Shown here one piece after another: positions 5,571 to 27,010 of a stretch of 64,000 bases of DNA. Position numbers and translations under genes: made by a program. The stretch's first letter is position 1; each line of letters opens with the position of its first letter. Source of the stretch: an uncultured Thermoleophilia bacterium (lineage in GTDB: Bacteria; Actinomycetota; Thermoleophilia; UBA2241); the NCBI GenBank assembly GCA_963705085.1, contig CAVPIV010000004.1, positions 1,043,379 to 1,107,378 of the forward strand. The letters are read 5' to 3'. The notes beneath the pieces were generated by a model. That model did no database searches, had not been told where the DNA came from, and worked only from the letters and a program-made list of their open reading frames with translations.

Positions 5571-6959
5571 CTAGAGCGAAGCCCGCTCCCTGAACCGGTC
5601 GACGCAGTTGATCGGGACGTCGAGCACCCGCGCGATATTGAACTTCGCCTCGATGAAGTTGGCCTGGGCGGGCTGACTGATCGCGTACGAGTGAATGCGG
5701 CCAAAGCCGTGCTCGTTGCGCACGTCCGTCATCACGGCCGGGTCGGAGAGGTCGAACGGCGACACGCCCAGCTTGCCGGCCACGTACTCCTTGGCCTCCT
5801 TGAGACGCATACCCCGGGTCATCTGCATCCGTGCCACCAGATCTCCGGCAGCACGCATACCGCCCATGCCCGCGGCCTGCGTGTGGGTGCCCTGCATGCC
5901 GAGAGGGTCACCCGACCCCACCTACAACCCGTCGATCTTGAGGATGTCGACGAAGGCCTTGGCGGCCCGGCACGCCGCATCGACGACCGGGTGCACGAAC
6001 ATCGGCACGCCGCCGACGCCCATGCCCACGTTGGGGTGGATCGGGATCGTCGCGTCGGCCATGCAGGGTTTGATCAAGGTCAGCGCCCTGGCCATGTTCC
6101 AGGCGCAGCTCTTGCCGGTGTTGATGTTGACAACCGGCCCGAACATGGTGGCCCCCGCCTTCTGGGCGAGGAGCATCTGCTGGTGCGGCCACTGCCCGGC
6201 CAGCCGCACCCCGTCGTACTCGAGCCGCCCGTGCATGCCGAGCACGAACTCGCCGGCCATGCCCAGCTCGACGCCCATCGTCGGGTACTTCTTGCGCACG
6301 ATCTCGGTCGCCCGCAGGGCGGCGAGGAACTCGGGATCGCCCGAGGCCCCGGTTGTGTCCCAGTCGAGGCCGTCGGCGCCCGCCTCCCACATCGCGTCGG
6401 CGAGCTTCACCATGTCGTCGACAGCCATGTCGACGGCCTCCTCCTCGGCCTCCCGGGCCTCCGGGATCTGCCCCGCCGGCAGCAGCTCGTTCCAGTTCGG
6501 GAACGGGCCGTCGGGCTTGGAGTACAGGCCCAGGTTGACCATGACGCCGTACTGCATGGGGACGACCATCTGCAGCTGGGCGTCGTGCAGGCACTGGGCC
6601 TCGTACGGCAGGATCGTGCGGACGACCTTGAGCGAGTAGTCGCCGACGCAGAGCTCCACCAGGTCGGCGCCCATCCACTGCTCGAACGACTGCATGTCCT
6701 GCTGGCGCGTCGCGTGGGTCTTCATGCCTGTGCCGTCGCAGCTCAGCACGACCTCGTCGCCCAGGTCGACGCTGGTGAAGCGCGCGGGCGAGGCGTAGAT
6801 GTCGAGGACGTGCTCCATCTCGTCGGCGTCGAGCGGCGGCACCTTGGCGCGGGCGGCCGCCGCCTCGACGCCTGCTTCGATGTCCGCCTGCAGCTCGCCG
6901 CGCGTCAGGCGCGCGATCGTGCCGTCGCCCATGCGCGTTGGTATCCGGTTCTCGTTCAC
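5571..6959 (-). CDS. mtbB: Dimethylamine:corrinoid methyltransferase, pyrrolysine-containing (in-frame TAG at 5924-5922)
   Basis: ORFs 5922..6959 and 5571..5921 share a frame and are separated by one TAG: ...ILKIDGL-TAG-VGSGDPLGM...MRAAGDLVARMQ...EAKEYVA. This matches the MtbB Pyl context (DGI-O-IGVGDPLGM). N-terminal TRMGDG; IPIHPNVGMGVGGVPM. Confidence 0.93.
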
Positions 6960-7003
6960 CGCTGATCCCTCCCCCGGCAGCCGTTGCCGCCGCGCGAGTC
7001 CAA

Positions 7004-7023
7004 CTAACCGGTCAATCGATCAC
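7004..7023. promoter_or_regulatory. Putative operator (TRAyC-N8-GrTYA) in the mtbB/mttB divergent intergenic region
   Basis: CTAACCGGTCAATCGATCAC resembles the sites at 18119 and 23997. Confidence 0.5.
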
Positions 7024-7191
7024 TTGGTATGCTACACGCCACAGGGGGTCAAGGGCGAGAGGCGCGCTGGCGCGGCGATGGTCGGTCGCCGGCCCGCGGG
7101 CACGGTTCTCGTCCCTGCCGCCCTCGCTTGACGGTGGCGAACGCCGGTGCAATCGTGCGAGCCGTCGCCCGGCGCGGAAGGGGGGAGAACG

Positions 7192-8642
7192 ATGAGAGCG
7201 ACGACGACCTGGCTGAGCGACGCCGAGAAGCGGAGCATCGTCGACGGCGCCCTCGACCTCCTCGCCAACGTCGGCATGCGCTTCGCCGGCTCTCGCACGC
7301 TGCCGCTGCTGGCGGAGCGGGGGGCGCGCATCGACGAGGCGACCGGCATCGTGCGCCTGCCGCGCGACCTCGTCGCCTGGGCCGTCGAGCGCTGCCCGCG
7401 CTCGTTCCTCATGGCCGGCGCCTCGCCGGCGGACGATGTCATGCTCGGCGAGGGGCGGCCGTTCCACTTCCGCCCAGCGGCTGTGTCGCCAAGACCCTCG
7501 ACTACCGCACGGGCACCCGAAGGCCCAGCACGCTGGCCGACGTGCGCGAGGGCACGGCGGTCATGGACGCGCTGCCGCAGCTCGACCTCATGTGGACGCA
7601 GGTGAGCGCAACCGACGTGCCCCTGGAGCGGCGCGAGCTGCTCGAGTACTTCACCGTGCTCACCGAGACGTCGCGGCACGTCACCTTCGTCGACTGCCCG
7701 CAGGAGGTCGACGCCGTCCTGCGCCTCTGCGAGGTCCTGGAGGGCGACCTCGACCGCTTCCGCGAACGGCCGCGCATCTCCACGGTCGTCACGGCGGCGT
7801 CGCCGCTCCAGGTCGACGGGCCCGTCCTCGACACGCACGTCGCCCTCGCGGCACACGGCGTGCCGATCGAGGTCTACTCGATGACGATCGCCGGCGCGAC
7901 GTCGCCGGTGACGCTCGCCGGCACCGTCGCCCAGGGTCTGGCGGAGTTCCTCGGCGTCGCCACCGCGCTCCAGGTCGCGGCGCCCGGCGCGAGGGTGGTC
8001 TTCTGCTTCGGCTCCGGCGTCCTCGACATGCTGCGCACGACCTTCTCGCTCGGCTGCGTGGAGAGCGCCCTCATGGCCGTCATGGCCACCGAGGTCGGCC
8101 ACCACGTGGGCGTGCCGACGCTCAACCCCGGGCTGTCCACCGACGCCAAGCACGCCGGCCTGCAGACCGGCTACGAGAAGGCCCTCAAGGCGGCGACGGT
8201 GTGCGCCGCCAGCCCCGACATCGTGTCCGGCTGGGGTCTCATCGACTCGCACAACACGATGTACCTGCCGCAGTCGGTGGTCGACAACGAGATCGCCGCC
8301 ATGGTGCGCCGCCTCACCTCCGCCGTCGAGGTGTCGCCCGAGACGCTGGCCGCCGACTCAGTCGCCCGTGTCGGGCCGGGCGGCAGCTTTCTCGGCGAGA
8401 AGGCGACGGCGCGCCGCATCCGCGCCGGCGAGCACTACCTGCCGACGGTCTCGACCAGGCTCTCCTACGAGAAGTGGATCGAGGACGGCCAGACCGAGAT
8501 CGACGCGGCGACGGCCACGGTGGAGCGCATCCTCGCGGCCCGCCCCTCCCGGCAACCCCATCTCCGCGACGAGCAGATCGACGAACTGGCCGCGATCTGC
8601 CGCGCCGGCCCCGAGAGCGTGCGCCAGGCGAAGGGAACGTGA
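7192..8642 (+). CDS. Non-pyrrolysine MttB-superfamily methyltransferase, with a 1-nt deletion frameshift near 7470
   Basis: N-terminal half MRATTTWLS...GRPFHF joins PSGCVAKTLDY...SPLQVD...AGATSPVTLAG...GLSTDAKHAGLQTGYEK...VGPGGSFLG after one missing base (ttccgccc). Confidence 0.85.
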
Positions 8643-9595: not shown

Positions 9596-10063
9596 GTGCC
9601 GCACGTCCTGATCTCGAGGAAGACCTGCTCCGGCTGCCACCTCTGCGAGCTGGCCTGCTCCGCCTGGCACGAAGGCGTCTACCGCCCGACGCTGGCCCGC
9701 CTGCGCGTCGAGGTCAACCCGACGACGACGGCGATCAAGGGCTTCACCTGCCTGCAGACGGCCTGCCACAAGTGCCAGGACGCCTGCCCGCACGCCGCGA
9801 TCGTCACCGAGTCCGGGGTGCTCCTCGTCGTCGAGGAGCTCTGCAACGCCTGCGCCGACATCGCCGAGGGTCCGCGCTGCGTGACCGCCTGCCCGTACGA
9901 CGTGATCGCCATCCACCCGGACTCGGGCAAGGCCTTCAAGTGCGACATGTGCCGCGGCGGCGAGCCCCAGTGCGTGGCCTTCTGCCAGAACCCCGTCGTG
10001 CTGGCGGTGACGGTGCGGGCGGACAAGGGCGACCCGGCGGACTCGACCCCCGCGCCGGAGTGA
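9596..10063 (+). CDS. 4Fe-4S dicluster ferredoxin-like protein (AOR-associated)
   Basis: CSGCHLCELAC, CLQTACHKCQDACP, CNAC...CVTACP, KCDMC...CVAFC. Confidence 0.9.
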   Translation: MPHVLISRKTCSGCHLCELACSAWHEGVYRPTLARLRVEVNPTTTAIKGFTCLQTACHKCQDACPHAAIVTESGVLLVVEELCNACADIAEGPRCVTACPYDVIAIHPDSGKAFKCDMCRGGEPQCVAFCQNPVVLAVTVRADKGDPADSTPAPE

Positions 10064-10068
10064 CGGCG

Positions 10069-10335
10069 ATGGCCGAGGTCAAGCTGACGCTCCCGCTCGG
10101 CTGGGACCACCCGCGCGCCCTGCGCGAGCTGGAGTGCGACGCGGCCACCGTGGGCGAGGCGATCGACCGCTTCATCGCCCAGGAGCCGCTGCTGGAGCCG
10201 CGCATCAAGCGCGACGGCCGCGTCTGGGTGGGCATCTTCGTCAACGGCCGGAACGTGCACTACCTTGACGGACTCGACACCCGGCTGGCGGACGGCGACA
10301 CGCTGACGCTCCTCACGCCCGTGGCCGGCGGATAG
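10069..10335 (+). CDS. MoaD/ThiS family sulfur carrier protein
   Basis: IFVNGRN...DTRLADGDTLTLLTPVAGG; C-terminal Gly-Gly followed by TAG. Confidence 0.9.
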   Translation: MAEVKLTLPLGWDHPRALRELECDAATVGEAIDRFIAQEPLLEPRIKRDGRVWVGIFVNGRNVHYLDGLDTRLADGDTLTLLTPVAGG

Positions 10336-10344
10336 GACGGCGCG

Positions 10345-12123
10345 ATGGACTTCTACACCGGACGCGTGCTGCGGCTCGACCTCACGGCCGGCACGGCCAC
10401 GGTCGAGCCGCTCAACGAGGAGTGGGCCCGCCTCTACATCGGCGGCAAGGGCCTGCTCCTGCGCTACCTCTTCGCGGAGCTGCCGGCCGGCACGAAGGCG
10501 CTGGCCCCCGAGAACCCGCTCATTCTGGCGACCGGGCCGTTCGCCGGCACGGCTGCCCCCACCTGCTCACGCCTGGCGGTCGGCTGCAAGAGCCCGGCCA
10601 CCGGGACCTTGCTCGACTCGTACGTCGGCGGCTCTTTCGCCACCGAGCTCAAGTTCGCAGGGTACGACCTGGTGCTGATCACCGGCCGGGCGCCCGCGCC
10701 GGTCCTCGTCCTCGTCGAGGACGAGCGGGTCGAGCTCCTCCCGGCCGCAGGCCGGTTCTGGGGTCTCGAGACGGCCGCCCTCGAGGAGGTCGTGCGGCGC
10801 GAGATGGGGCCCCACCACAAGGTGCTCTCGACCGGCCCGGCAGGCGAACGCGAAGTGCCCTTCGCCTGCCTCTCGACCGACCACTACCACAAGGCCGGCC
10901 GCGGCGGCGCCGGCGCCGTGATGGGCAGCAAGAACCTCAAGGCGGTCGTGGTGCGCGGCACCGGCGCCGTGAGCGTCGGCGACACGGCCGCCTTCACCGC
11001 CGACGTGCTCCGCCTGCAGCGCGAGCGCGTGCTGACCGCCGACAACGCCTGGGCCTACGAGGAGGGCACGCCCTTTCTCGTCGAGGCCGTCAACGACGCC
11101 GGCGCCCTGCCTACCCGCAACTTCCGCAGCGGCACCTTCGCCGGCGTGCCGGCGATCGGCTCTGCCGCCCTGCTCGCCGTACGCACCAAGGTGCGGGCCT
11201 GCACGCAGTGTCCACTGGCCTGCCGCCAGGTCCACGCCTTCGCCGACCACGTCTGTGAAGGCCCGGAGTTCGAGACCCTCGGGCTCTGTGGCGCCAACTG
11301 CGGCATCGCCGATCTCGCCGCCGTCGCCGCCTTCACCCGCGACTGCGACGAGCTCGGCCTCGACACGATGTCCGCCGGCGTCATTGTCGGCCTGGCCATG
11401 GAGTTGTGCGAACACGGCGCCGCCGACTACGGCCTCGCCTTCGGCGACGTGGACGCCTACCTGGCGGCGCCCCGCCTCATCGCCGCCCGCGAAGGCTACG
11501 GCGCCGAGCTCGCCCTCGGCGCCCGGGCTTTGGCCGCCCTCAAGGGGCGGCCGGACCTGGCGACCGAGGTCAAGGGCCTCGAGATGCCGGCCTACGATCC
11601 GCGGGGCACGTTCGGCATGGGCCTCGGCTACGCCACCTCCGACCGCGGCGCCTGCCACATGCGCGCCTTCACCGCCTACGACGACATCCTCGGCGGCAGC
11701 GCGCCGCCCGACTCCCTCGAAGGCAAGGCGCAGCTCGTCGTCGACCTACAGGACTTCAGCGCCGTGGCCTGGACCGGCGTGTGGTGCTCCAACATGGCCC
11801 TGGACACCGACTTCCTCGGCGCCTATCTCAGGCACGTCTGGAAGCGGGAAACGTCTCATGAGGAGCTGATGACCGTCGGCGCCCGCATCTGGAACCTCGG
11901 CCGCCTCCTCAACCTGCGCGAGGGCATACGCCGCGAGGACGACCGGCTGCCGGAGCGCATCCTGCGCACTCCTCACCCGGACGGGGTCGCCGCCGGCAAG
12001 GTATTGACCGCCGAGGAGCTGCGGGCGGCGATCGACGAGTACTACCGCCTGCGCGGCTGGACGCCGGAGGGCGTGCCGGAGGAGACAACCCTTCAGCGCC
12101 TGGCGGTCGACGTCCGGGTCTGA
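10345..12123 (+). CDS. aor: Aldehyde:ferredoxin oxidoreductase (tungsten/molybdenum pterin)
   Basis: KSPATG, AGRGGAGAVMGSKNLKAV, CTQCPLAC, GPEFET, CDELGLDTMS, DPRG, DRGACH, YYRLRGW. Confidence 0.93.
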   Translation: MDFYTGRVLRLDLTAGTATVEPLNEEWARLYIGGKGLLLRYLFAELPAGTKALAPENPLILATGPFAGTAAPTCSRLAVGCKSPATGTLLDSYVGGSFATELKFAGYDLVLITGRAPAPVLVLVEDERVELLPAAGRFWGLETAALEEVVRREMGPHHKVLSTGPAGEREVPFACLSTDHYHKAGRGGAGAVMGSKNLKAVVVRGTGAVSVGDTAAFTADVLRLQRERVLTADNAWAYEEGTPFLVEAVNDAGALPTRNFRSGTFAGVPAIGSAALLAVRTKVRACTQCPLACRQVHAFADHVCEGPEFETLGLCGANCGIADLAAVAAFTRDCDELGLDTMSAGVIVGLAMELCEHGAADYGLAFGDVDAYLAAPRLIAAREGYGAELALGARALAALKGRPDLATEVKGLEMPAYDPRGTFGMGLGYATSDRGACHMRAFTAYDDILGGSAPPDSLEGKAQLVVDLQDFSAVAWTGVWCSNMALDTDFLGAYLRHVWKRETSHEELMTVGARIWNLGRLLNLREGIRREDDRLPERILRTPHPDGVAAGKVLTAEELRAAIDEYYRLRGWTPEGVPEETTLQRLAVDVRV

Positions 12124-12132
12124 GCCGCCGGG

Positions 12133-14337
12133 CTAGGCGTCGGCGCCGGAGTCTGCCTCGCCCAGCGCCTGGGCAGCGACTGCCGCCGCAGGCTTCCCGG
12201 ACGTCTGCGCCGCCAGCAGCTCATCCGGCGGGATGTGACAGTTGTACGTGTGCCCAGGCGCGGCTTCCTGCACCGGTGGCTCCTGCGTCTCGCAGATCTT
12301 CCCGAGGAAGCGGTGGCAGCGCGTGTGGAACCGGCAGCCCGAGGGCGGATCGCTGAGGCTCGGCATGCTGCCGCGCAGCGGGATCCGCTGGTGGGGGTCG
12401 TCGAAATCGAGTGTGGGGATCGACGACAGCAGAGCCTCCGTGTAGGGATGGTGCGGTGGGTTGAAGACCTGTTCGGCCGAGCCGACCTCGATGAGCTCCG
12501 CGAGGTACATCACCCCGATGCGGTCGGAGATGTAGCGAACCACGGCGAGGTCGTGGGAAATGAAGACGTACGACACCTGCTTGGTGGTCTGCAGCTCGAC
12601 GAGCAGGTTGAGGATGCTGGCCTGCACCGACACGTCGAGGGCCGAGGCGGGCTCGTCGCAGACGACCAGCGTCGTGGGGTTGCCGGCGAAGGCGCGGGCG
12701 ATGGCGATGCGCTGCTTTTGGCCACCCGAGAGATCCATCGGCTTCTGCAGGAGGAAGCGCGGCTCGACGCGCACGTCGGCCGACAGCTTGTCGACCATGG
12801 CGCGCACCGAACCTTCCCCGGCGCCGCCGAGCTTGCGCACGGAGCGGGTGAGGATGGCACGCGTGCTCCACGACGGGTTGAGTGTGGAGTCGGGGTTCTG
12901 GAAGACCATTTGGATGGCGCGCAGCGCGTTCTGTGAGCGGCGCCCGGCGGTGGAGGGCAGCTTCTTGCCCTCGAACTCCATCGTGCCGGAATCGGCGGCG
13001 ATGAGGCCGGTGACGCACTTGGCCAGGGTAGTTTTGCCGCTGCCCGACTCGCCCACGAGACCGAAGGTCTCGCCGCGCTTGAGCCGGAGCGACACGTCGT
13101 GCACAGCGGTGAGCCTCTTGCGCCCGTCCTTGAACGTGCGATTCACGTCGCCGATGAGGAGCACGTCGCCCTCGCTCGCGCCCCTGGCCTCCAGGCTGGT
13201 GGCGAGGACCGGGGTCCGGCGCGGCATCTCGGGCACGTCCCCAGAGAAGTAGCAGCGCGCGTGGCGCGCTGCCTCCCCGACCGGGTTGGCGTGGTGCGGC
13301 GAGTAGGCTGCCGGGTCCGGCGGCATGGCCTCAGCCTCCGCCGCCCCCTTGGCTCCGCCGTCGCCTGGCCAAGCGTAGAGGTCGGGCTCGCGGCGCGCAC
13401 AGACCGGCTGCGCCATCGGACAGCGCGCCGAGTAGACACAGCCCTTCAGCGGCTCGCCGAGGGCCGGCAGCGTGCCGGGGATGGTCTCCAGCGCCGCGTC
13501 GGTCTTGTTCATGCCGAAGCGCGGCACGCAGCGCAGCAGGCCCATCGTGTACGGGTGCCGCGGGTCGGTGAAGATCTCGCGGGCAGGACCTTCTTCGACC
13601 AGGCGCCCCGCGTAGAGCACGCCGACGCGCTCGCAGAGGCGCGCCACCAGGCCGAGATTGTGCGTGATCAGCAGGATGGCCGCGTTGATGCGCCCGCGCA
13701 GCTCCTCGATAAGGTCGAGGATCTCGGCCTCCACGGTGGCGTCGAGGCCGGTCGTGGGCTCGTCGAGGACCAGCAGGTGCGGGTTGACGGCCAGCGCCAT
13801 GGCGATGACCACGCGCTGCTGCTGCCCGCCGGAGAGCTCGAAGGGGTAGCGGCGCAGGGTCGAGTCAGGGTCGGGGAGCGCAACGCGGCGTAGGCTCTCG
13901 CGAGCGCGCTCGAGCGCCTCGGCCTTGCCGAGACCCTCGTGGTAGCGAAAGACCTCGGCGACCTGGTCGCCGATGCGCATCGCCGGGCTAAGGGCCGTGG
14001 CGGGGTCCTGGTAGACCATGGCGATCTGCTCGCCGCGCCACTTGCGCACCGCCTCTTCGCTCAGCTTGCTGACGTCCTGCCCATCGACCAGCACCCGGCC
14101 GGCGTCGATCGTGCCGTTGGCGGCCAGGTAGCGGAGCGCGGCCATGGCCAGCGTGGTCTTGCCGCAGCCCGACTCGCCGACAAGGCCGTAGGCTTCGCCG
14201 CGCTCGATGCGCAGGGTCACGCCCTTCAGCACCGGCAGGTCGCGGCCGCGACGATGGAACGTGACCTCAAGGTCGCGGACGTCGAGCGCGGCCGGCGCGG
14301 CGTCCGGGGCGTTGGCTGGTTGTTCCACGGTGCTCAT
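12133..14337 (-). CDS. Dipeptide/oligopeptide-type ABC transporter, fused double ATP-binding subunit
   Basis: Two Walker A motifs (GESGCGKT, GESGSGKT), two LSGGQ signatures, HPYT and C-terminal GC-F-RC motifs. ATGA overlap with the upstream permease. Confidence 0.93.
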   Translation of the reverse strand: MSTVEQPANAPDAAPAALDVRDLEVTFHRRGRDLPVLKGVTLRIERGEAYGLVGESGCGKTTLAMAALRYLAANGTIDAGRVLVDGQDVSKLSEEAVRKWRGEQIAMVYQDPATALSPAMRIGDQVAEVFRYHEGLGKAEALERARESLRRVALPDPDSTLRRYPFELSGGQQQRVVIAMALAVNPHLLVLDEPTTGLDATVEAEILDLIEELRGRINAAILLITHNLGLVARLCERVGVLYAGRLVEEGPAREIFTDPRHPYTMGLLRCVPRFGMNKTDAALETIPGTLPALGEPLKGCVYSARCPMAQPVCARREPDLYAWPGDGGAKGAAEAEAMPPDPAAYSPHHANPVGEAARHARCYFSGDVPEMPRRTPVLATSLEARGASEGDVLLIGDVNRTFKDGRKRLTAVHDVSLRLKRGETFGLVGESGSGKTTLAKCVTGLIAADSGTMEFEGKKLPSTAGRRSQNALRAIQMVFQNPDSTLNPSWSTRAILTRSVRKLGGAGEGSVRAMVDKLSADVRVEPRFLLQKPMDLSGGQKQRIAIARAFAGNPTTLVVCDEPASALDVSVQASILNLLVELQTTKQVSYVFISHDLAVVRYISDRIGVMYLAELIEVGSAEQVFNPPHHPYTEALLSSIPTLDFDDPHQRIPLRGSMPSLSDPPSGCRFHTRCHRFLGKICETQEPPVQEAAPGHTYNCHIPPDELLAAQTSGKPAAAVAAQALGEADSGADA

Positions 14338-15317
14338 CTCGAGAAGACCCGTGAGAGTCCGTCGGTGATGAGATTGACGCCCACCACAAGAGAGGCGAGG
14401 GCGGCGGCGGGGATCAGCACCGTCCACGGGGCGATCTGCAGGAAGATCCTCTCCGTGGCGATCGTGAGGCCCCAGTCGGGCGACGGCGGCACCAGGCCGA
14501 AGCCGAGAAACGACAGCGTGGCCGCCGTGAACACGGCGTAACCCAGACGGATCGTACCCTCGACGATGATCGGCTGCGTGATGTTGGGCAGGATCTCGCG
14601 CGCCATGACGAACGCCGAGCGTTCGCCCCGCAGGCGCGCCGCCATGACGTACTCGCGCTCGCGCTCGCCGATGACCGCCGCACGAATGGTGCGGCTGACC
14701 ACCGGTGTGAACAGCGCCCCGATGACGACGATGACGATGGCCAGCGACTTGCCGAGCAGCGACAGGATGAGGATGGAGGTGATGATGACCGGCAGGGCCA
14801 GCAGCACGTCCACCAGCCGCATGATGATCTCGTCGGTCATGCCGCGGTAGAAGCCGGAGACGAGGCCGATGATGCCGCCCCAGAGCAAGGCGAGGAGAGT
14901 CGCCAGGGGCGCGATGATGAGCACGGTGCGGGCACCGGCCATGGTGCGGGCGAGCACGTCGCGGCCGAGGTCGTCGGTGCCGAACCAGTGCGCTGCGCTG
15001 GGCGCCTGGAGACTGGCCGCCGCATCGACATCGAAGGGGCTCTGCGTGATGAACGTCGAGAAGATGGCCATGAAGAGCCAGAAGAGGACGATGAGCAGGC
15101 CGGTCATGAAGGTCGGGCTGCGCAGCAGCGCCTTCGCCAGATAGCGTCGCTGCCGCCGCTGTTCCAGCAGAGAGGCGGCGTCGGCCTGGGCCGTCTGTGC
15201 CTGCCGGTCGGCGGCGGCTTCGGCCTGGAACTCCAGCATCTCGGGATCCGCGTCCACCCAGCTTGCTTCTTCCGCCAGATCGGGGTCCGCCCCGAAGGGG
15301 CCACGCTCTTCGTCCAT
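14334..15317 (-). CDS. ABC transporter permease (DppC/OppC-like)
   Basis: HWFGTDDLGRD, EYVMAAR, LSFLGFG, PDWG. Confidence 0.93.
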   Translation of the reverse strand: MDEERGPFGADPDLAEEASWVDADPEMLEFQAEAAADRQAQTAQADAASLLEQRRQRRYLAKALLRSPTFMTGLLIVLFWLFMAIFSTFITQSPFDVDAAASLQAPSAAHWFGTDDLGRDVLARTMAGARTVLIIAPLATLLALLWGGIIGLVSGFYRGMTDEIIMRLVDVLLALPVIITSILILSLLGKSLAIVIVVIGALFTPVVSRTIRAAVIGEREREYVMAARLRGERSAFVMAREILPNITQPIIVEGTIRLGYAVFTAATLSFLGFGLVPPSPDWGLTIATERIFLQIAPWTVLIPAAALASLVVGVNLITDGLSRVFSR

Positions 15318-19392: not shown

Positions 19393-20796
19393 CTACGCGA
19401 GGCAGTAGGCGTCGAGCTGCCGGCGGGTGACCGCGTCGAGGTCGTCGGGCGGCTCGTAGGTCTCCAGCAGTTCCTCGACCCGACGGCTCGCGACGGCGGC
19501 GAGGTCGTGAGCCCCGAGACCCAACCACATCCGGTACGGGGCACGGTTCATGATCGTCGGGCGGCGGCCGTCCCGGGCGTGACGACGGGTGTGGCGCTGC
19601 CCGAGCACCGAGCCGCCCGGACCCACGACGGCCATAGTGTCGAGGGCCAGCGTCTCGTCGTCCACGACGACCGGCCGCCTCCCGACGCGCAGCGCGCTCA
19701 GCATCTCGTCGTCGATCACGAACTTCGCCGGCGAGAAGCAGTTGAAGGACGAGAGGATGCCGGCGGCCTGCAGCACGAAGTCCGCGTCGTGGTCGAGGGC
19801 CGCCTCGATCGACAAGGCCGACTCGATCCCCGCCTGCGCGTCGGGGACGTGGGCGTCGGTCAGCGACCCTCCGGCACGCACCGGGACGCCGACGAAGTGG
19901 CCGAGCTGTACCGTCGCCTCGGTGAGGGTCCAGTATTCGGGCGTCCCCATGCTCAGAGCGCCGCTCTTCATGCACGCCAGCGACGACGTCCCCCCGTAGA
20001 GGAACGGGCAGCCCGGGCGAGCGAGCTGGCTGAGGACGAGGCCGCTGAGCAGCTCCGCGTGCTGCACGGCCAGCAGGCCGGCGAGCGAGAGCGGCGCGGT
20101 CGTGCCCCCCATGGCGCAGACCGACACGCAGACGGGCTGGCCGAGGCGGGCCAGGCGCAGCAGCGTCTGGGCCGCCTCGGCCGAGAACTGCAGCGGCGAG
20201 GTCGAGTTGATGTTGGTCCACAGCCGCGGCCGCTCGTGCCACCCCGCGCCGTGGACGATCTCGGTCACGTCGAGGACGACCTGGAGGTCGTTCAGGCCGG
20301 CGACGCTGTACCTGACGGCCTTGTCGCTGCCGACGATCTGGGCGTGCGCGGCCGCCCGCGGCCGCTGCTCCTCGGGCAGATCGGTCGGCTCCACGCTGTG
20401 GCCGTGCACGGCGATGTTGGCGGAGAGATGCGCGAGCGCGATGGCCGTCCGCAGATCGGCGAGCGTGCTGTGGCGCTGCGCGCCGCCGTCGAGGACGAAC
20501 GCCGGCCCCGCGGCGCTGCCCAGCACCGGGGGGCCGTCGCCTCCCACGCGCAGATCGAGCTCGGGTCGCCGGCCCGCCACGACGTACTCGGCCGGCGCCG
20601 ACTCCAGCGCGCGGACCACGAGGGCCTCGCCGAAACGGGCGCGCGCGCCGTCCACGGCGGCCCCGTGCGCCGCGAGCAGCGCCAGCGCCTCGGGATCGAG
20701 GACCTCGAACCCGACGTGCTCCAGCAGCCAGAGACCGGCGTCGTGAACGCGCTGCACATCAGGCGCCGACAGCGCCTGACGCCCGTGCCCGCTCAC
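19393..20796 (-). CDS. Non-pyrrolysine MttB-superfamily methyltransferase (MtgB-like)
   Basis: NSTSPLQF, MGGTTAPLSLAG, RAGGSLTDAHVPDAQAG (Leu at the Pyl-equivalent site), VGPGGS. Ends in TAG. Confidence 0.9.
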   Translation of the reverse strand: MSGHGRQALSAPDVQRVHDAGLWLLEHVGFEVLDPEALALLAAHGAAVDGARARFGEALVVRALESAPAEYVVAGRRPELDLRVGGDGPPVLGSAAGPAFVLDGGAQRHSTLADLRTAIALAHLSANIAVHGHSVEPTDLPEEQRPRAAAHAQIVGSDKAVRYSVAGLNDLQVVLDVTEIVHGAGWHERPRLWTNINSTSPLQFSAEAAQTLLRLARLGQPVCVSVCAMGGTTAPLSLAGLLAVQHAELLSGLVLSQLARPGCPFLYGGTSSLACMKSGALSMGTPEYWTLTEATVQLGHFVGVPVRAGGSLTDAHVPDAQAGIESALSIEAALDHDADFVLQAAGILSSFNCFSPAKFVIDDEMLSALRVGRRPVVVDDETLALDTMAVVGPGGSVLGQRHTRRHARDGRRPTIMNRAPYRMWLGLGAHDLAAVASRRVEELLETYEPPDDLDAVTRRQLDAYCLA

Positions 20797-20823
20797 GCCG
20801 CCCCTGCCCCTGGGCCGCCCGCC

Positions 20824-21474
20824 TCAGCCCACCCCGAGGATGGTCTTGGCGGTGGCCACCGCCTCGATCGCGTCCTCGGCGTAGCCGTCGGCGCCGATCT
20901 CCTCGGCCCAGGCGCGGGTCGTCGGGGCGCCGCCGATCATGACCTTGACGGACTCGCGCAGGCCGGCGGCCTTCAAGGCCTCGATCGTCCGGGCCTGGTT
21001 GGGCATCGTCGTGGTCAGCAGGGCGGAGAGCAGCAGCAGATCGGCGCCGGTGTCGCGCACCGTCGCGACGAAGGTCTCGACGGGCACGTCGCAGCCGACG
21101 TCGGTGACCGTGAAGCCGGCGGCGCTGAGCATGCTGCAGACGATCGTCTTGCCGATCTCGTGGATGTCGCCGGCCACCGTGCCGGCCACGGCCACGCCCA
21201 GGGTGCGGCGGCCCTCGCTGGTCTTGTCGAGCTCGGGCTGCAGGACGGCCACGGCGGCCTTCATGGCCTCGGCCCCCTGGACCAGCTCGGGGAGGAAGAA
21301 CTCGCCGCGGCCGAAGAGGTCGCCGACCTCCTCGATGCCCTTGACGAAGCCGTTGTCGAGGATGTCGGCGGGGGCCAGGCCGGCGGCCAGGCCCTGGGCG
21401 GCCAGGGCGGCGGCCTCCTCCGGCTCGCCGTCGAGGATCGTCTGCTTCATCTGCTCGTACAGGTCTGCTGACAT
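20824..21474 (-). CDS. Methyltransferase corrinoid (B12-binding) protein, MttC/MtbC-like
   Basis: GDIHEIGK (DxHxxG), LSALLTTT, MIGGAP, IGADGYAEDA, N-terminal cap FFLPEL. Confidence 0.95.
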   Translation of the reverse strand: MSADLYEQMKQTILDGEPEEAAALAAQGLAAGLAPADILDNGFVKGIEEVGDLFGRGEFFLPELVQGAEAMKAAVAVLQPELDKTSEGRRTLGVAVAGTVAGDIHEIGKTIVCSMLSAAGFTVTDVGCDVPVETFVATVRDTGADLLLLSALLTTTMPNQARTIEALKAAGLRESVKVMIGGAPTTRAWAEEIGADGYAEDAIEAVATAKTILGVG

Positions 21475-21485
21475 GTGATCCTCCG

Positions 21486-22937
21486 TCACTTCCCGGCTTC
21501 GACGTAGGCGTCGACCAGGTCGTCCATCTTGGCCTTGAGCTCCGGCGCGAGCGGCTCCGGCCGATGGTCGGCCAGGATCGCGAGCGCCTTGCGCCGCGCC
21601 TTCTCGCGGAGATCGAGCGAGCCCTCCTCCTCCCAGGCCTGCTGGGTGACGCGGTTGAGGATCGTGGGCTTCCACTGGAGCTGCCGCAGGTGCCGCTTGG
21701 TGTGCTTGGCGCGCAGGAAGTCGCCGCCGGGACCCACGGCGGCGATGGTGTCGAGTCCGAGCGTCTCCTCGCTGACCTCGATGCCCTCGAGCGTGCGGCG
21801 GTTCATGGAGACGTACTCGTCGACGATGACGACGAGTTCGGGCGAGCAGCTCAAACCGAAGTCGACGTAGCCGACGTCGTGGTTGAGGTTCGAGCCCGCC
21901 TGCATCGAGAGGAGCGTGAGCTCGGCGATATCGAGTCCGGCCTGGGCGTCGCAGGTCTGCGAGTCGCTGGTCCCGGCGTACCCCCAGTTGGGGATGTCCA
22001 TCCACTTGGCCATCTCCACCATGCCGAGGTACGTGGTGTAGTACTCGGCCGAGTTGTAGAGGGCCTGCACGGTGTTCATGTCGAGCTTGACCGGGCCCAT
22101 GCCGGTGAGCACCGGCGAGCCGGGCCGGCGGAGCTGGTGGATGACGACACCGAAGAGCGATTCGGCGAGGGCCTGCACGATGTGGCCGGCGTGCGTGATC
22201 GGCGCCGTGGCGCCGGCGATCGGCGCCGGGGAGTAGATGAGCGGGATGCCCCAGTCGGCGCAGAAGAGCAGCTTGTCGATGACCTCGACGGAGTGTCTGA
22301 GCGGGCTCACGGGCTCGCCATACTGGATGAAGTACGGCTTGGCCCGCAGCTCCTCGGCGCCGCCGCGGATCTCGCAGGCGATCTTCCACATGACCTCGAG
22401 GTCCTCGGGGCCGGCGGCCGTCATCACCATCGGCTTGGTGGTGTTGCTGACCATCTGGCGGAAGCTCTCGAGGTATGACGCGTACGCGTCGCAGTCGCTC
22501 GGGTAGGCGCTCGACATGACGAAGTCCATGTTGGGCAGGCCGTCGCAGAGGCGCGCCTGGCGGCCGACGTCGGTGAGCCTGCTCGTGCGACGCTCGCCGG
22601 TCTCGAGATCGTAGATGCTCAGCAGGTCGGAGCCGGTGCCGAAGTACGAGTTGTGGCCGCCCAGCCGCATGGCGAGCTCGCCGGTGCGGCCGTACACGTC
22701 GATCATGGCCGGCACCGTCTCGCGCGCCTTGGCGACGAGCTCGCGCGGGATGCGCACCAGGTCCTCGCCCTCCAGCGTCGCGCCCGCCTGCAGGAGCAGG
22801 TCGCGGGCGACCGCGTGCGGGACCACCATCCCGGTGTCCGCGATGATGGTCAGCGCCGCGTCGTAGATCGCCTGACGCTTCTCGTCGGAGAGAAAGGTCA
22901 GACGGCTGTTGAGCGCGGAGGTGGGCAGGTCGTTCAT
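21486..22937 (-). CDS. Non-pyrrolysine MttB-superfamily methyltransferase
   Basis: FGTGSD, EPVSPL, AGATAPITHAG, GYAGTSDSQTCDAQAG, NLNHDVG, VGPGGDFL. Confidence 0.92.
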   Translation of the reverse strand: MNDLPTSALNSRLTFLSDEKRQAIYDAALTIIADTGMVVPHAVARDLLLQAGATLEGEDLVRIPRELVAKARETVPAMIDVYGRTGELAMRLGGHNSYFGTGSDLLSIYDLETGERRTSRLTDVGRQARLCDGLPNMDFVMSSAYPSDCDAYASYLESFRQMVSNTTKPMVMTAAGPEDLEVMWKIACEIRGGAEELRAKPYFIQYGEPVSPLRHSVEVIDKLLFCADWGIPLIYSPAPIAGATAPITHAGHIVQALAESLFGVVIHQLRRPGSPVLTGMGPVKLDMNTVQALYNSAEYYTTYLGMVEMAKWMDIPNWGYAGTSDSQTCDAQAGLDIAELTLLSMQAGSNLNHDVGYVDFGLSCSPELVVIVDEYVSMNRRTLEGIEVSEETLGLDTIAAVGPGGDFLRAKHTKRHLRQLQWKPTILNRVTQQAWEEEGSLDLREKARRKALAILADHRPEPLAPELKAKMDDLVDAYVEAGK

Positions 22938-23165
22938 CGTCTCTTCTCTCCTCTGCAGTCCCGTGGAGGCCTATGGGCACGGCCGACGTCGAGCCCAGTG
23001 CAGGATGACATGCGGGTACCGTCACGACAACCGGCCGGCGGCGACATCTGGTAGCATCCCGGCCTGAGGTATCCGCTCGGTTAAGCGTCGACCGCGCCGC
23101 GCCATGGGCCCGGGACCAGGCGCCGGGTGGACGGTGGTGGGCCGCGCCAGGGGGAGGTCGCAAGC

Positions 23166-23933
23166 GTGAGCAGCAAGAAGCCGCGTGATGCCGCCGGAGC
23201 GGGCTTGGGCGGGAGTCGGGAGGCAGACGCGGACGAGCCCGACGCGGCCGCCCCGATCCGGGCCTCCGCCGGCGCGGAGAGCCCCAACCGGACAATCCAC
23301 CTGGAGTTCCGCAACCCGCTCTCCGACCTCCCCGAGACCGCACGCAACCTGATCCTCTCGGCCAAGGCGATCATCGCGGAGCACGGCTTCGACGCCCTCA
23401 CGCTGAACCGTCTGGCGGCAGTGTCAGGCGAGAACAAGGCGATGACCGCCTACTACTTCGGCAACAAGGCGGGCCTCGTCGCGGCCGTGCTCGATTCGGT
23501 CATTCACGACGAGTACCTCGCCTCCGAATCCCGCATGGAGAACCTCGGCGCCGGCGAGCTCACCCCGCGACTGATCGAGGAGATGCGGGGGATCGTGAGC
23601 TCGGCCGAGGACTTCCGCGTCTTCTACGAGCTCCTCCCGCGAGTGCTTCGCGACGACGTGCTGCGGACGCGCATGGTGCCGCTCTACCGCTGGTACTGGA
23701 GCGTCAAGCTGGAGTGGCTCGGGTTCGGGGACGACCCCGAGGCGCTGGACGACCCGGATCTGCAGGGCATCGCCAGGCTCCTCTCCGCCATGATCGACGG
23801 ACTCGCCGTCCAGGCGATGATCGAGCCGCGGGCGGACCTCTCCGGGGCCTACCGGATCCTGCAGCAGCTCGTGGCGGAGTCGCTGCCGCGGTTCGTCGCG
23901 GAGCGATCGGCCGGTTGCGACGCGGCCGAGTAG
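23166..23933 (+). CDS. TetR/AcrR family transcriptional regulator (BetI-like C-terminus)
   Basis: ILSAKAIIAEHGFDALTLNRLAAVSG...YYFGNKAGL helix-turn-helix; AMIDGLAVQ. RBS GGGGAGG before GTG. Ends in TAG. Confidence 0.9.
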   Translation: MSSKKPRDAAGAGLGGSREADADEPDAAAPIRASAGAESPNRTIHLEFRNPLSDLPETARNLILSAKAIIAEHGFDALTLNRLAAVSGENKAMTAYYFGNKAGLVAAVLDSVIHDEYLASESRMENLGAGELTPRLIEEMRGIVSSAEDFRVFYELLPRVLRDDVLRTRMVPLYRWYWSVKLEWLGFGDDPEALDDPDLQGIARLLSAMIDGLAVQAMIEPRADLSGAYRILQQLVAESLPRFVAERSAGCDAAE

Positions 23934-23969
23934 CTGCCGAGACACCCGAGAACAGCCTCTCCCCGACCC

Positions 23970-24016
23970 TTGACACGTTCGCACCGCCGTGGGACGCTGA
24001 CCAAACGGTTGGTCAG
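23970..24016 (+). promoter_or_regulatory. Sigma70-type promoter of Pyl-mttB with overlapping palindromic operator
   Basis: TTGACA (23970-75)-N17-GACGCT (23993-98, preceded by TGG); palindrome CTGACCAA-ACGG-TTGGTCAG at 23997-24016. Confidence 0.7.
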
Positions 24017-24071
24017 TCGATCGACGCCCTCCCCGCCCTTGCCGGCGCCTCGCTCAGGAGGTTCGAATGTC

Positions 24072-25541
24072 ATGAGACGCAATCCTCGCGCCGGAGCGCG
24101 CCAGAGCGGCGGCCTGAGACTCGAGGTGTTCACCGAAGACGAGCTGCGCGAGATCCACCTCGCCACGCTCGAGGTGCTGTCGCGTACCGGCGTCTTCGTC
24201 GAGGACGACGAGGCACTCGCCATCTTCGCCGGCGGCGGCGCCGACATCGACACCGACCGCCGGGTCGTCAGGCTCCCCGCCCACGTCGTCGAAGAGGCCC
24301 TGCGCACGGCGCCGCCCAAGGTCGTCCTCTGCGGCCGCACGCCCGAACGCGATGTCGTCCTCGAGGACGGCCGCGTCGGGTTCACGAACTTCGGCGAGGG
24401 CATCCAGGTCGTCGACCCCTACACCGGGGAGTTGCACGAGTCGCTCAAGCAGGATGTCGCCGACTGTGCCCGCCTCATCGACGCCCTCCCCGAGATCGAC
24501 GTCCTCGAGCGCCCTCTCGGCGCCCACGACGTCCCGCCCGACACCGCGGCCCTGCACAATGCCGAGGCCATCTTCTCGAACACGACGAAGCACGCCACCA
24601 TCGGTCCGCTCACCGGGTTCTGCGCCCGCAAGATGATCGACATGGCGGCGGCGATCGCCGGCGGCCGCGATCAGCTCCGCCGGCGGCCGCTCCTCTCGTT
24701 CCTCACCTGCCCGGTGAGCCCTCTCAAGCTGGTGGCCGACTGCTGCCGGATCATCATCGAGGGCGTGCGCGCCGGCGTGCCGGTCAACGTGCTGTCCATG
24801 GCGATGGCCGGCGGCTCCGCGCCCGTCAACCTCGCCGGCGCGCTGGTCGAGCACAACGCCGAGGTGCTGGCCGGGATCACGCTGGCCCAGCTCACGGCGC
24901 CCGGTGCCCCGGTCATCTACGGCTCCTCGACGACCGCCATGGACCTGCGTTTCGCCAGCGCCTCGGTGGGCAGCCCTGAGTGCGGGCTGATCGGCGCCGG
25001 CGTCGCCTGCCTCGCCCGCTTCTACCTGCTGCCGAGCTGGGTGGCCGGTGCGTAGGGGGACGCCAAAGTGGCGGACGCCCAATCCGGCCACGAGAAGACG
25101 ATCACCAGCCTGCTGCCGGCGTTGGCAGGGGCCAACCTGATCTACGGGCTGGGGATGCTGGAGTCGGGCGTCACCATCGATTACGGGCAGCTCGTCATGG
25201 ATGCCGAGTTCGCGCGCATGGTCAAGTTCTGCGTCCCGGGCATCCCCGTCAACGACGAGACCCTGGCCGTCGACGTGATCGCGGAGGTCGGACCCTTTGG
25301 CGACTTCCTCTCGCACGACGACACGTACCGGGGCATGCGCAGCCAGTCGCAGTCACGGCTCATCGACCGGAGGGTCCGGGAGGACTGGACCGCCTCCGGC
25401 TCGACGAGCATCTACGACCGCGCCCTGGCCGAGGCGCGACGTCTGCTCGAGACGTATCAGCCGGAGCCTCTTCCCGACGACGTGGTCCGGCGCCTGCGAG
25501 AGATCGTCGCCGCCGCGGAGCGCGAGCTCGGGGTCGGCTGA
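24072..25541 (+). CDS. mttB: Trimethylamine:corrinoid methyltransferase, pyrrolysine-containing (in-frame TAG at 25053-25055)
   Basis: LPSWVAGA-TAG-GDAKVADAQSGHEKT matches the MttB Pyl context (PSFVAGT-O-SDAK..DQAGHEKT). FTNFGEG, CPVSPL, MAMAGGSAPV, YGSSTT, GANLIYGLGMLE. RBS CAGGAGG. Confidence 0.95.
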
Positions 25542-25582
25542 GCGCCTCGTCGCCGAGGTCGAAGGCCGCCGGACAGCCCCGC

Positions 25583-27010
25583 TCACCTCGGCAGCAGCAG
25601 CGCCTTGATCTCGAGGTAGTCCTCGAGCCCGTACCGTCCGCCTTCACGCCCGTTGCCGGAGTGCTTCATGCCGCCGAAGGGCGTGCCGTAGCGGGACGGG
25701 GCGTAGTTGACGTGCACGCTCCCCGCGCGCAGCCGCCTCGCCACCCGTTCGGCACGCTCCGCGTCGCTCGTGCTCACGTAGGCGGCGAGGCCGTACGGCG
25801 TGTCGTTGGCCAGCACCACTGCCTCGTCCTCGCTGTCGAACGGCATCATCACGAGCACTGGACCGAAGATCTCCTCGCGCGCCACCCGCATGCCGGGCTC
25901 GACGTCGGCGAAGATGGTCGGACGCACGTAGTACCCCTTGTCGAATCCCTCCGGCCGGCCGGGGCCGCCGATCAGGAGGCGAGCCCCTTCGGCGATGCCT
26001 GCCGCGATCAGCCCCTGAACCCGGTCGAACTGGATCTGGCTGATCAGCGGCCCGATGTGCGGGCCCTCAACGATCGGGTCGCCGACGGCTTGCCCACGCC
26101 CGGCTGACGCGGCTACGACGAGCGCGCGGCCGTAGGCGCTGCGCTCGACCAGCATGCGTGTCGGGGCGTCGCAACTCTGCCCGGTGTTGGCGAAGCACGC
26201 CAGCACGCCGTCGGTCACGGCCCGGTCCAGGTCCGAGTCGGCGAAGACGATGTTGGGGGACTTGCCGCCGAGCTCCAGCGTCACCCGCTTGATCGTCTCG
26301 GCCGCGTCGTGCGTGACGGCGATGCCCGCGCGGGTCGAACCGGTGAAGGACATCATGGCGACATCCGGATGTCGGGAGAGCGCCGCGCCGACCGTCGGTC
26401 CATCCCCGTTGACGAGATTGAAGACGCCCGGCGGGAAGCCGGCCTCGTCGATCATCTCGGCGTAGAGCATGGCGTCCAGGGGGGTGAACTCAGAGGGCTT
26501 GAGGACGCAGGTACAGCCAGTGGCCAGGGCCGGGATCACTTTGAGCACGACCTGGTTGATCGGCCAGTTCCAGGGCGTGATCAGCCCACAGATGCCGGCG
26601 GGCTCGCGCACCACCGTGTCGCCGTTCGGCAGGAGCTCGCGCCAGTTCACCTGCTTCATCGCCTTGATGAAGGCGCGCACGTGCCGGATGCCCGCCTCGG
26701 CCTGCTGGTCGCGACACATGGTGATCGGCGCGCCGAGCTCGAGCGTGATGGCCTCGACAACCTCGTCGTAGCGGCGTTCGTAGATCGCCAGCAGGCGCTC
26801 CAGCAAGGCCACACGCTCGTCGGGCCCGGTGAAGGCGTACGTCGCGAAGGCCCGCTTCGCGGCCGCGACCGCCCGATCGACGTCCGCGGGCGTGCCCATC
26901 GACACGATCGCGACCGCTTCCTCGGTTGCAGGGTTGATGATGTAGCGGTCGCAGACCGTCAGAGGATCGACCCACCGCCCGTCGATGTAGAACCTGCGCT
27001 TGTCGAGCAT
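25583..27010 (-). CDS. NAD-dependent aldehyde dehydrogenase
   Basis: ITPWNWP, KPSE, SFTGS, LELGGKSP, GQSCDAP, EEIFGPV. Confidence 0.95.
   Translation of the reverse strand: MLDKRRFYIDGRWVDPLTVCDRYIINPATEEAVAIVSMGTPADVDRAVAAAKRAFATYAFTGPDERVALLERLLAIYERRYDEVVEAITLELGAPITMCRDQQAEAGIRHVRAFIKAMKQVNWRELLPNGDTVVREPAGICGLITPWNWPINQVVLKVIPALATGCTCVLKPSEFTPLDAMLYAEMIDEAGFPPGVFNLVNGDGPTVGAALSRHPDVAMMSFTGSTRAGIAVTHDAAETIKRVTLELGGKSPNIVFADSDLDRAVTDGVLACFANTGQSCDAPTRMLVERSAYGRALVVAASAGRGQAVGDPIVEGPHIGPLISQIQFDRVQGLIAAGIAEGARLLIGGPGRPEGFDKGYYVRPTIFADVEPGMRVAREEIFGPVLVMMPFDSEDEAVVLANDTPYGLAAYVSTSDAERAERVARRLRAGSVHVNYAPSRYGTPFGGMKHSGNGREGGRYGLEDYLEIKALLLPR

Follow-up and report, generated by a model that had tools for sequence, protein, structure and literature searches.

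The 64,000-nucleotide stretch of DNA analysed here (the window) belongs to the genome of an uncultured Thermoleophilia bacterium of the phylum Actinomycetota, and its gene mttB, at 24072-25541 on the plus strand, very probably encodes a trimethylamine:corrinoid methyltransferase, MttB, of the type that contains pyrrolysine (Pyl), as judged from translation and alignment. A single in-frame TAG interrupts the gene at the position of the catalytic pyrrolysine of the solved enzyme; the same TAG is found in every readable orthologue, and genes for making and inserting pyrrolysine are present in the genome, pylC with its 5' end lost. In all likelihood the enzyme is made by decoding UAG 25053-25055 as pyrrolysine, and transfers a methyl group from trimethylamine (TMA) to a corrinoid protein. 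The host genome (2.89 Mb in eight contigs, 97.7% complete) carries the window on contig C4, at 70% G+C. The elements of the gene itself are:

24072-25541, plus strand: predicted Pyl-type trimethylamine:corrinoid methyltransferase MttB, 489 amino acids with UAG read as pyrrolysine (translation, Pfam and alignment)
25053-25055, plus strand: in-frame TAG, codon 328, the predicted pyrrolysine codon, opposite Pyl334 of structure 7xcl
24056-24061, plus strand: Shine-Dalgarno sequence AGGAGG, with the ATG 10 nt further on (motif reading)

The in-frame TAG of mttB and its conservation

Translation of 24072-25541 with TAG as a residue yields 489 residues in which that codon is the only internal stop, and the frame ends at a TGA (25539-25541). 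The TAG is codon 328, in the context WVAGA-O-GDAKV, where O stands for pyrrolysine, and the AG(A)-O-GDAK context that an earlier note on this DNA had given for it is thereby borne out. The Pfam family MTTB (PF06253) matches the read-through product over profile positions 30-499 of 500 with 303.4 bits, and the TAG lies inside the match; under translation table 11 the gene is split into two open reading frames (ORFs), 23970-25055 and 25068-25541. About 40 related loci have the ATG and a GGAGG-like motif in the corresponding positions. Contigs from three metagenome runs cover the place of the TAG; these are short contigs of relatives, in small shares, none of which reaches 31 nt beyond the TAG in both directions, and they show only that no variant was seen. 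One run of raw reads yielded 0 reads.

The solved structures that best match the mttB product are those of M. barkeri MttB, 7xcm (E 2.2e-123) and 7xcl (E 1.3e-122). The earlier note had proposed an alignment with this enzyme and with D. hafniense MtgB. In the phmmer alignment codon 328 stands opposite residue 334 of 7xcl, which is printed as X and is Pyl334; MtgB (2qne) matches with E 3e-67 only, and has Leu at the Pyl column. According to the available part of PMC9842639, the active site of MttB comprises Gly110, Met249, Pyl334 and Tyr364, of which Gly110 and Tyr364 are 100% conserved among Pyl-MttBs. Their equivalents in the target are G108, M243, O328 and Y358, and in a comparison of 25 MttB-family stretches of the host genome the pair of Gly and Tyr is confined to the four copies that bear a TAG.

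The target resembles M. barkeri MttB (7XCL, 7XCM, 7XCN; PMC9842639, in the part available) in its full-length alignment, in its UAG at Pyl334 and in the retention of G108, M243 and Y358, and it likewise has a gene for an MttC-like corrinoid protein near it. It differs in its bacterial host of 70% G+C and in the TetR gene upstream. With D. hafniense MtgB (2QNE) and other non-Pyl quaternary-amine methyltransferases of the MttB superfamily the target shares fold and family; unlike MtgB, with Leu at the column, it has a UAG, and its match to true MttB is stronger by about 185 bits than that to MtgB. Three paralogues in the window that have sense codons at this column fall in the MtgB-type, non-Pyl part of the superfamily, whereas the target does not.

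Conservation of the TAG was followed within the genome and across relatives. The genome holds 29 matches to PF06253, four of them with exactly one TAG, and in all four the TAG occupies one shared alignment column. Thirty-six orthologous loci were read ungapped, except for three with indels that could not be read in that way, and TAG stands at codon 328 in all 33 readable orthologues (83-90% identity). Differences per site at codon positions 1, 2 and 3 among these orthologues are 0.100, 0.072 and 0.328 before the TAG, and 0.135, 0.097 and 0.303 after it. The dominance of third positions downstream indicates that the C-terminal 161 codons are under purifying selection in the mttB frame. Between the host and its closest relative alone, the differences after the TAG number 12, 11 and 40 sites at the three codon positions.

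These data bear on two readings in which no pyrrolysine is needed. The first is that of a pseudogene, an MttB-family gene hit by a chance nonsense mutation, as might be suggested by the one internal stop under table 11 and by the frameshift in another family member of the window. It is effectively refuted by the conservation of the TAG, which recurs in the 33 readable orthologues and in about 100 paralogues from the genus among the matches listed, and by the coding-type substitutions downstream; the catalytic partners are conserved as well. The second reading is that of a split enzyme, in which the TAG is a true stop, the 157-codon ORF at 25068-25541 is made separately from a GTG, and the two pieces assemble. 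The GTG start four codons past the TAG fits this reading, as do public gene calls that stop at the TAG: among the best 120 database matches, 79 are shortened forms of 298-329 amino acids, mostly the product of 327 residues. Such shortened entries, however, are what table-11 gene callers yield for any Pyl gene, and a Shine-Dalgarno motif before 25068 was not seen in the sequence. The split enzyme was rejected, and appears highly improbable, because the break coincides exactly with the catalytic Pyl column, the frame runs on past it in every orthologue and a full set of pyl decoding genes is present.

In a set of 41 related genomes, all 24 members of the host's genus have a match to mttB with E <= 1e-60, as does 1 of the 16 others from the class; among the matches listed, nearly all above about 45% identity have exactly one TAG. 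PylSc is present in 23 of the 24 genus genomes and in the single outside genome with a TAG-bearing mttB, and in none of the remaining 15, and PylC and PylD show the same distribution. This co-occurrence is a pattern and not a statistic, since the genomes are kin and not independent. The related records, which come from peat, soil, lake and sediment, are MAGs (metagenome-assembled genomes) labelled as uncultured Thermoleophilia, Actinomycetota or Actinomycetes. In six orthologues (L028, L032, L037, L038, L061 and L100) TAG serves as the Pyl codon and also as the terminator, so that one gene family uses the same triplet for an internal residue and for its end.

Pyrrolysine genes of the host and the points against decoding

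The host genome encodes the following parts of a pyrrolysine system, with contigs named before the coordinates:

C7:13628-14350, minus strand: PylSc (307 bits, cut-off 178)
C7:13282-13542, plus strand: PylSn (116.7 bits, above cut-off)
C7:12163-12235, plus strand: tRNA-Pyl(cta), pylT (ARAGORN)
C7:10824-11948, plus strand: PylC, 5' end lost (262 bits summed)
C4:842169-843179: PylB, intact (414.8 bits, above cut-off)
C4:843360-844148: PylD, intact (216.6 bits, above cut-off)

Each pyl gene is present once, and the genes are distributed over two loci. The pair pylB-pylD, followed by a tRNA-Ser, lies on C4 about 200 kb upstream of the window, and the remainder is on C7, where the locus at 10824-14350 is arranged as pylC-pylT-(ORF)-pylSn with a convergent pylSc on the opposite strand. 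The tRNA-Pyl adopts a compact cloverleaf fold (z -3.1), in which the D loop has 5 nt, and is identical to that of a relative at 73 of 73 positions; Rfam returned nothing for the pyl region at gathering thresholds. The release factor RF1 is intact and found on C7 only, at a distance from the pyl cassette that is approximately that seen in three relatives, which indicates that C7 is part of the host chromosome. C7 is no second copy of other contigs, with which it shares only 28 kb of paralogue-level matches, and its tetranucleotide correlation is 0.97-0.99. With the TAG opposite Pyl334, the catalytic residues retained, the pyl genes in the genome and the frame conserved across the genus, the assignment of a Pyl-type MttB in the earlier note has held.

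Bacterial pyrrolysine systems with a synthetase divided into PylSn and PylSc include those of Desulfitobacterium and Acetohalobium. The host resembles them in the split synthetase, in its tRNA-Pyl(CUA), in the use of TAG as an ordinary stop as well, and in the retention of RF1. It differs from them in that its pyl genes lie at two loci and in that pylSn and pylSc converge on opposite strands.

A number of observations weigh against a functional Pyl-dependent MttB in this host. Several concern the supply of pyrrolysine. Compared with two relatives and with the solved PylC 4ffl, the sole copy of pylC is short by about 33 residues at its N-terminus, and 95 codons pass without a start codon. The cassette, which in relatives runs pylB-pylC-pylD-pylT in one piece, is split over two loci in the host, with pylC deleted from the pylB-pylD locus. 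In the closest relative (G004, 93% complete), PylSc, PylC and PylD were not found. Others concern the codon. TAG ends 454 of 1,699 confidently called ORFs (27%), and back-up stops are not enriched after genes that end in TAG: TGA or TAA follows within 10 codons in 7% of cases, compared with 13% after TGA. With RF1 intact and TAG stops at 27%, the limiting of genome-wide read-through is left unexplained. A fold resembling the pyrrolysine insertion sequence (PYLIS) was not found 3' of the TAG, where segments of 108 nt (z -1.53) and 75 nt (z +0.57) are shuffle-like. The remaining points concern the enzyme and its partner: Thr111 of M. barkeri MttB is replaced by Glu109, and, again unlike the M. 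barkeri gene with its adjoining co-directional mttC, the target has no corrinoid gene next to it on its own strand.

The first group of observations can be read to mean that mttB was built for pyrrolysine, that pylC is now broken and that TAG terminates translation, in which case mttB and the TAG-bearing dimethylamine methyltransferase gene mtbB would be recent relics or would depend on pyrrolysine, or a precursor of it, from outside. We regard this as quite unlikely. Homology to pylC begins exactly at a jump in G+C from 30% to 72%, and the 30% stretch extends to the 5' end of C7; a break at such a junction, running to the contig end, is typical of a chimeric join and is read here as one. The 5' truncation of pylC is therefore probably an assembly chimera, and possibly real. 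Taken together, the two loci supply every pyl gene in a single copy, and pylT, pylSn, pylSc, pylB and pylD are intact. In addition, the frames are open in all four mttB copies and in at least two of the three mtbB genes with a TAG, and the differences from the closest relative downstream of the TAG (given above) indicate purifying selection. Overall, the chance that the host is currently unable to make pyrrolysine is estimated at roughly one in ten.

Stretches of about 30% G+C occur at several places in this 70% G+C genome, namely C7:1-10860, C5:1-3000 and several pieces of C8:10-87 kb, and are probably chimeric joins or foreign insertions. The stretch on C7 carries a retron-type reverse transcriptase and abuts pylC where the homology begins.

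Substrate-induced expression of the pyl genes is one possibility by which read-through of ordinary TAG stops could be limited, and is reportedly found in Acetohalobium. A genome-wide search for same-frame ORF pairs across a TAG gave 50 candidates, mostly plain neighbouring genes, and such pairs are uninformative without homology.

If mttB is decoded with pyrrolysine, as we consider very likely, the following sequence of events may be proposed. Translation would start at the ATG at 24072. At UAG 25053-25055, pyrrolysine would be inserted from Pyl-tRNA(CUA) charged by PylSn and PylSc, in competition with RF1, and the ribosome would then complete the C-terminal 161 residues. In the finished enzyme Pyl328, together with Gly108 and Tyr358, would activate trimethylamine, and one methyl group would be handed to Co(I) in an MttC-like corrinoid protein. 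From there it would pass to tetrahydrofolate and the Wood-Ljungdahl/CODH-ACS (carbon monoxide dehydrogenase/acetyl-CoA synthase) machinery, presumably in place of the coenzyme M that serves as acceptor with M. barkeri MttB.

Putative regulatory region, paralogues and neighbouring genes

Upstream of mttB lies a regulator gene, tetR, separated from it by a short spacer:

23166-23933, plus strand: TetR-family regulator with TetR_N (30 bits) and a BetI-type C-terminal domain (TetR_C_6, 31.3 bits)
23052-23057, plus strand: putative -10-like element TAGCAT upstream of tetR, common to the closest relative (by eye)
23934-24071, plus strand: tetR-mttB spacer, 138 bp, lineage-specific, absent in the closest relative
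23970-23975, plus strand: perfect -35-like hexamer TTGACA, putative
23997-24016, plus strand: perfect 8-4-8 inverted repeat CTGACCAAACGGTTGGTCAG, predicted candidate TetR operator, found once in the 2.89-Mb genome

The probable start of tetR is the GTG at 23166; the longest ORF begins at 23127. In the earlier note mttB was credited with its own promoter and operator. The perfect TTGACA and the unique palindrome behind a TetR gene speak for that claim, and what it lacks is an acceptable -10 element and the spacer itself in the closest relative. The hexamer 17 nt after TTGACA is GACGCT, a poor -10, whose end is overlapped by the palindrome CTGACCAAACGGTTGGTCAG.

The architecture recurs at a second place in the genome. 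The spacer between a paralogous tetR and mtbB at C4:1270955-1271120(-) contains TTGACA, 16 nt, TACCAT and a perfect 20-nt palindrome that is likewise unique in the genome; the plan is the same and the palindrome different, as paralogous repressors would lead one to expect. In two metagenome runs, contigs carry the mttB spacer unchanged, or changed only downstream of the palindrome. Against an operator stand four observations. A scan of 22800-25800 with the sigma-70 consensus found no promoter; perfect inverted repeats of such a size are expected about 0.07 times per 138 bp in this genome; the palindrome occurs in none of about 40 related loci; and the closest relative lacks the spacer, its tetR (79% identical) and mttB sharing an ATGA overlap. 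On balance the palindrome is a tentative candidate for the TetR operator, somewhat less likely to be one than to be something else. The same scan showed one terminator-like site at 22920, unrelated to mttB.

At 16 of 80 related loci a TetR-like gene is found no more than 3 kb from mttB. Orthologues of this particular tetR (about 60% identity) were found at 10 loci in other genomes of the genus, where they are divergent from an AOR-like gene and not beside mttB, and where a conserved -10-like element and a 20-nt near-palindrome lie upstream of them. The absence of the spacer and the overlap of tetR with mttB in the closest relative, together with the location of tetR elsewhere in the genus, indicate that the direct linkage of tetR to mttB arose recently in this sub-lineage. 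Transcription of mttB probably proceeds by read-through from tetR, from a promoter in the spacer gated by TetR at 23997-24016, or from both.

A related arrangement was noticed upstream of the window's mtbB gene, where a -10-like hexamer TAGCAT is followed by an imperfect palindrome (about 7003-7034(-)). By eye, this palindrome, at about 7003-7016(-), resembles the near-palindrome upstream of the relatives' tetR orthologues, and it is possible that mtbB and the tetR orthologues belong to a shared TetR regulon.

The further members of the methylamine gene set in the window are:

19393-20796, minus strand: non-Pyl MttB-superfamily paralogue with Leu at the Pyl column, GGS-L-TDAH (Pfam, alignment)
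21486-22937, minus strand: non-Pyl MttB-superfamily paralogue with Thr at the Pyl column, YAG-T-SDSQ, divergent from tetR (Pfam, alignment)
7192-8642, plus strand: non-Pyl MttB-superfamily paralogue with Ser at the Pyl column, PGL-S-TDAK, frameshifted (alignment)
5571-6959, minus strand: Pyl-type dimethylamine methyltransferase MtbB with TAG at 5922-5924 (Dimeth_Pyl, 559.6 bits)
20824-21480, minus strand: MttC-like corrinoid protein, the nearest possible methyl acceptor (B12-binding and B12-binding_2 domains)

That the window contains another, independent Pyl site was also implied earlier, and the TAG of mtbB within a Dimeth_Pyl match confirms it. The three non-Pyl paralogues had been put forward as a natural set for comparing Pyl with non-Pyl enzymes. 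The alignment agrees that they have Ser, Leu and Thr at the column, and the set is weakened by the Ser copy, which is spread over two frames with a one-base shift near 7478-7494 and is a pseudogene or an assembly error. Close Pyl-free homologues of relatives form a better comparison set than these distant paralogues. Among 13 full-length homologues that were aligned (53-62% identity), the Pyl column holds Leu in seven, Trp in three, and Ala, Val and Ser in one each, and one relative (L104, G020:C3:51000-66000) carries three Pyl copies in tandem, together with one Leu(CTC) copy in which Tyr358 is changed to Ala.

The best solved match of the MttC-like protein is M. barkeri MttC (7xcn_M, E 6.8e-60). 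A 676-bp copy of its gene (window 20798-21473) is found at C7:31614-32289 and is 99.85% identical. The gene forms part of a minus-strand operon divergent from tetR, which comprises the Thr paralogue, the MttC-like gene, the Leu paralogue, a Zn-dehydrogenase and an ABC transporter of the Opp/Dpp type. Downstream, an aldehyde dehydrogenase gene (25583-27010) converges on mttB. Elsewhere in the genome, a canonical cluster at C4:1266803-1271714 unites the tetR paralogue, a Pyl-type mtbB, a Pyl-type mttB and two corrinoid genes, and the genome as a whole has 17 B12-binding matches, two RamA-like activases, a URO-D/MtbA-like methyltransferase and a MeTr.

Two genes of the MtmB family (PF05369), at C8:600510-601859 and C4:408581-409927, have no in-frame stop and are each preceded by a corrinoid-protein gene; from their sequence they are predicted to be non-Pyl MtmB homologues. 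The available part of PMC13044021 ascribes to non-Pyl MtmB homologues a function in the use of tetramethylammonium and choline. The window also encodes a ferredoxin-like 4Fe-4S protein and an aldehyde:ferredoxin oxidoreductase at 9596-12123(+).

Published context and meaning

Pyl-encoding mttB and mtbB genes are already known to be transcribed by Actinobacteriota MAGs from a thawing permafrost mire, as reported in the part of PMC10805028 that was available, and the novelty implied by the earlier note was to that extent overstated. The host shares with those MAGs the phylum and the same two types of Pyl gene, and orthologues 84-87% identical to the target occur in related MAGs recorded from samples of palsa, bog and fen. 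In the available part, PMC10805028 identifies its Pyl genes by truncation of the ORF only, and is silent there on pyl genes, TAG usage, paralogue numbers and regulation. Apart from one unrelated soil survey, the literature library that was searched returned no account, specific to Thermoleophilia, of pyl genes or of the decoding of Pyl; for pyrrolysine in Actinobacteriota or Actinomycetota the only relevant paper was the one cited, and a review of PylRS (PMC11363022) contains no Actinobacteria terms. Published mention of the pyrrolysine system in this lineage is brief. The class of enzyme, the way it works and the decoding of Pyl in bacteria were all established already, and the gain is one of distribution and detail and not of principle.

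The analysis provides a gene-level record that an uncultured genus of Thermoleophilia (Actinomycetota), widespread in soil, peat and sediment, very probably uses the 22nd amino acid for methylamine demethylation. For trimethylamine, such bacteria are competitors of methylotrophic methanogens. In public gene calls Pyl-type mttB is cut short at the TAG, and surveys based on annotation will consequently under-report or mislabel these genes. The locus, together with the close Pyl-free homologues of its relatives, offers a usable comparison set for the contribution of pyrrolysine to catalysis.

The copies of Pyl-MttB number four in the host and up to about eight in relatives. A broader reading, which we hold to be rather unlikely, is that of a genus-wide radiation of Pyl-MttBs, many with their own TetR and private palindrome, from which Pyl-free derivatives have arisen repeatedly; the target would then be specialised for a tertiary amine other than TMA and be induced by that amine via TetR. 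If such a radiation did take place, the genus would present a natural series of pyrrolysine gain, retention and replacement in genomes where TAG continues to stop a quarter of the genes.

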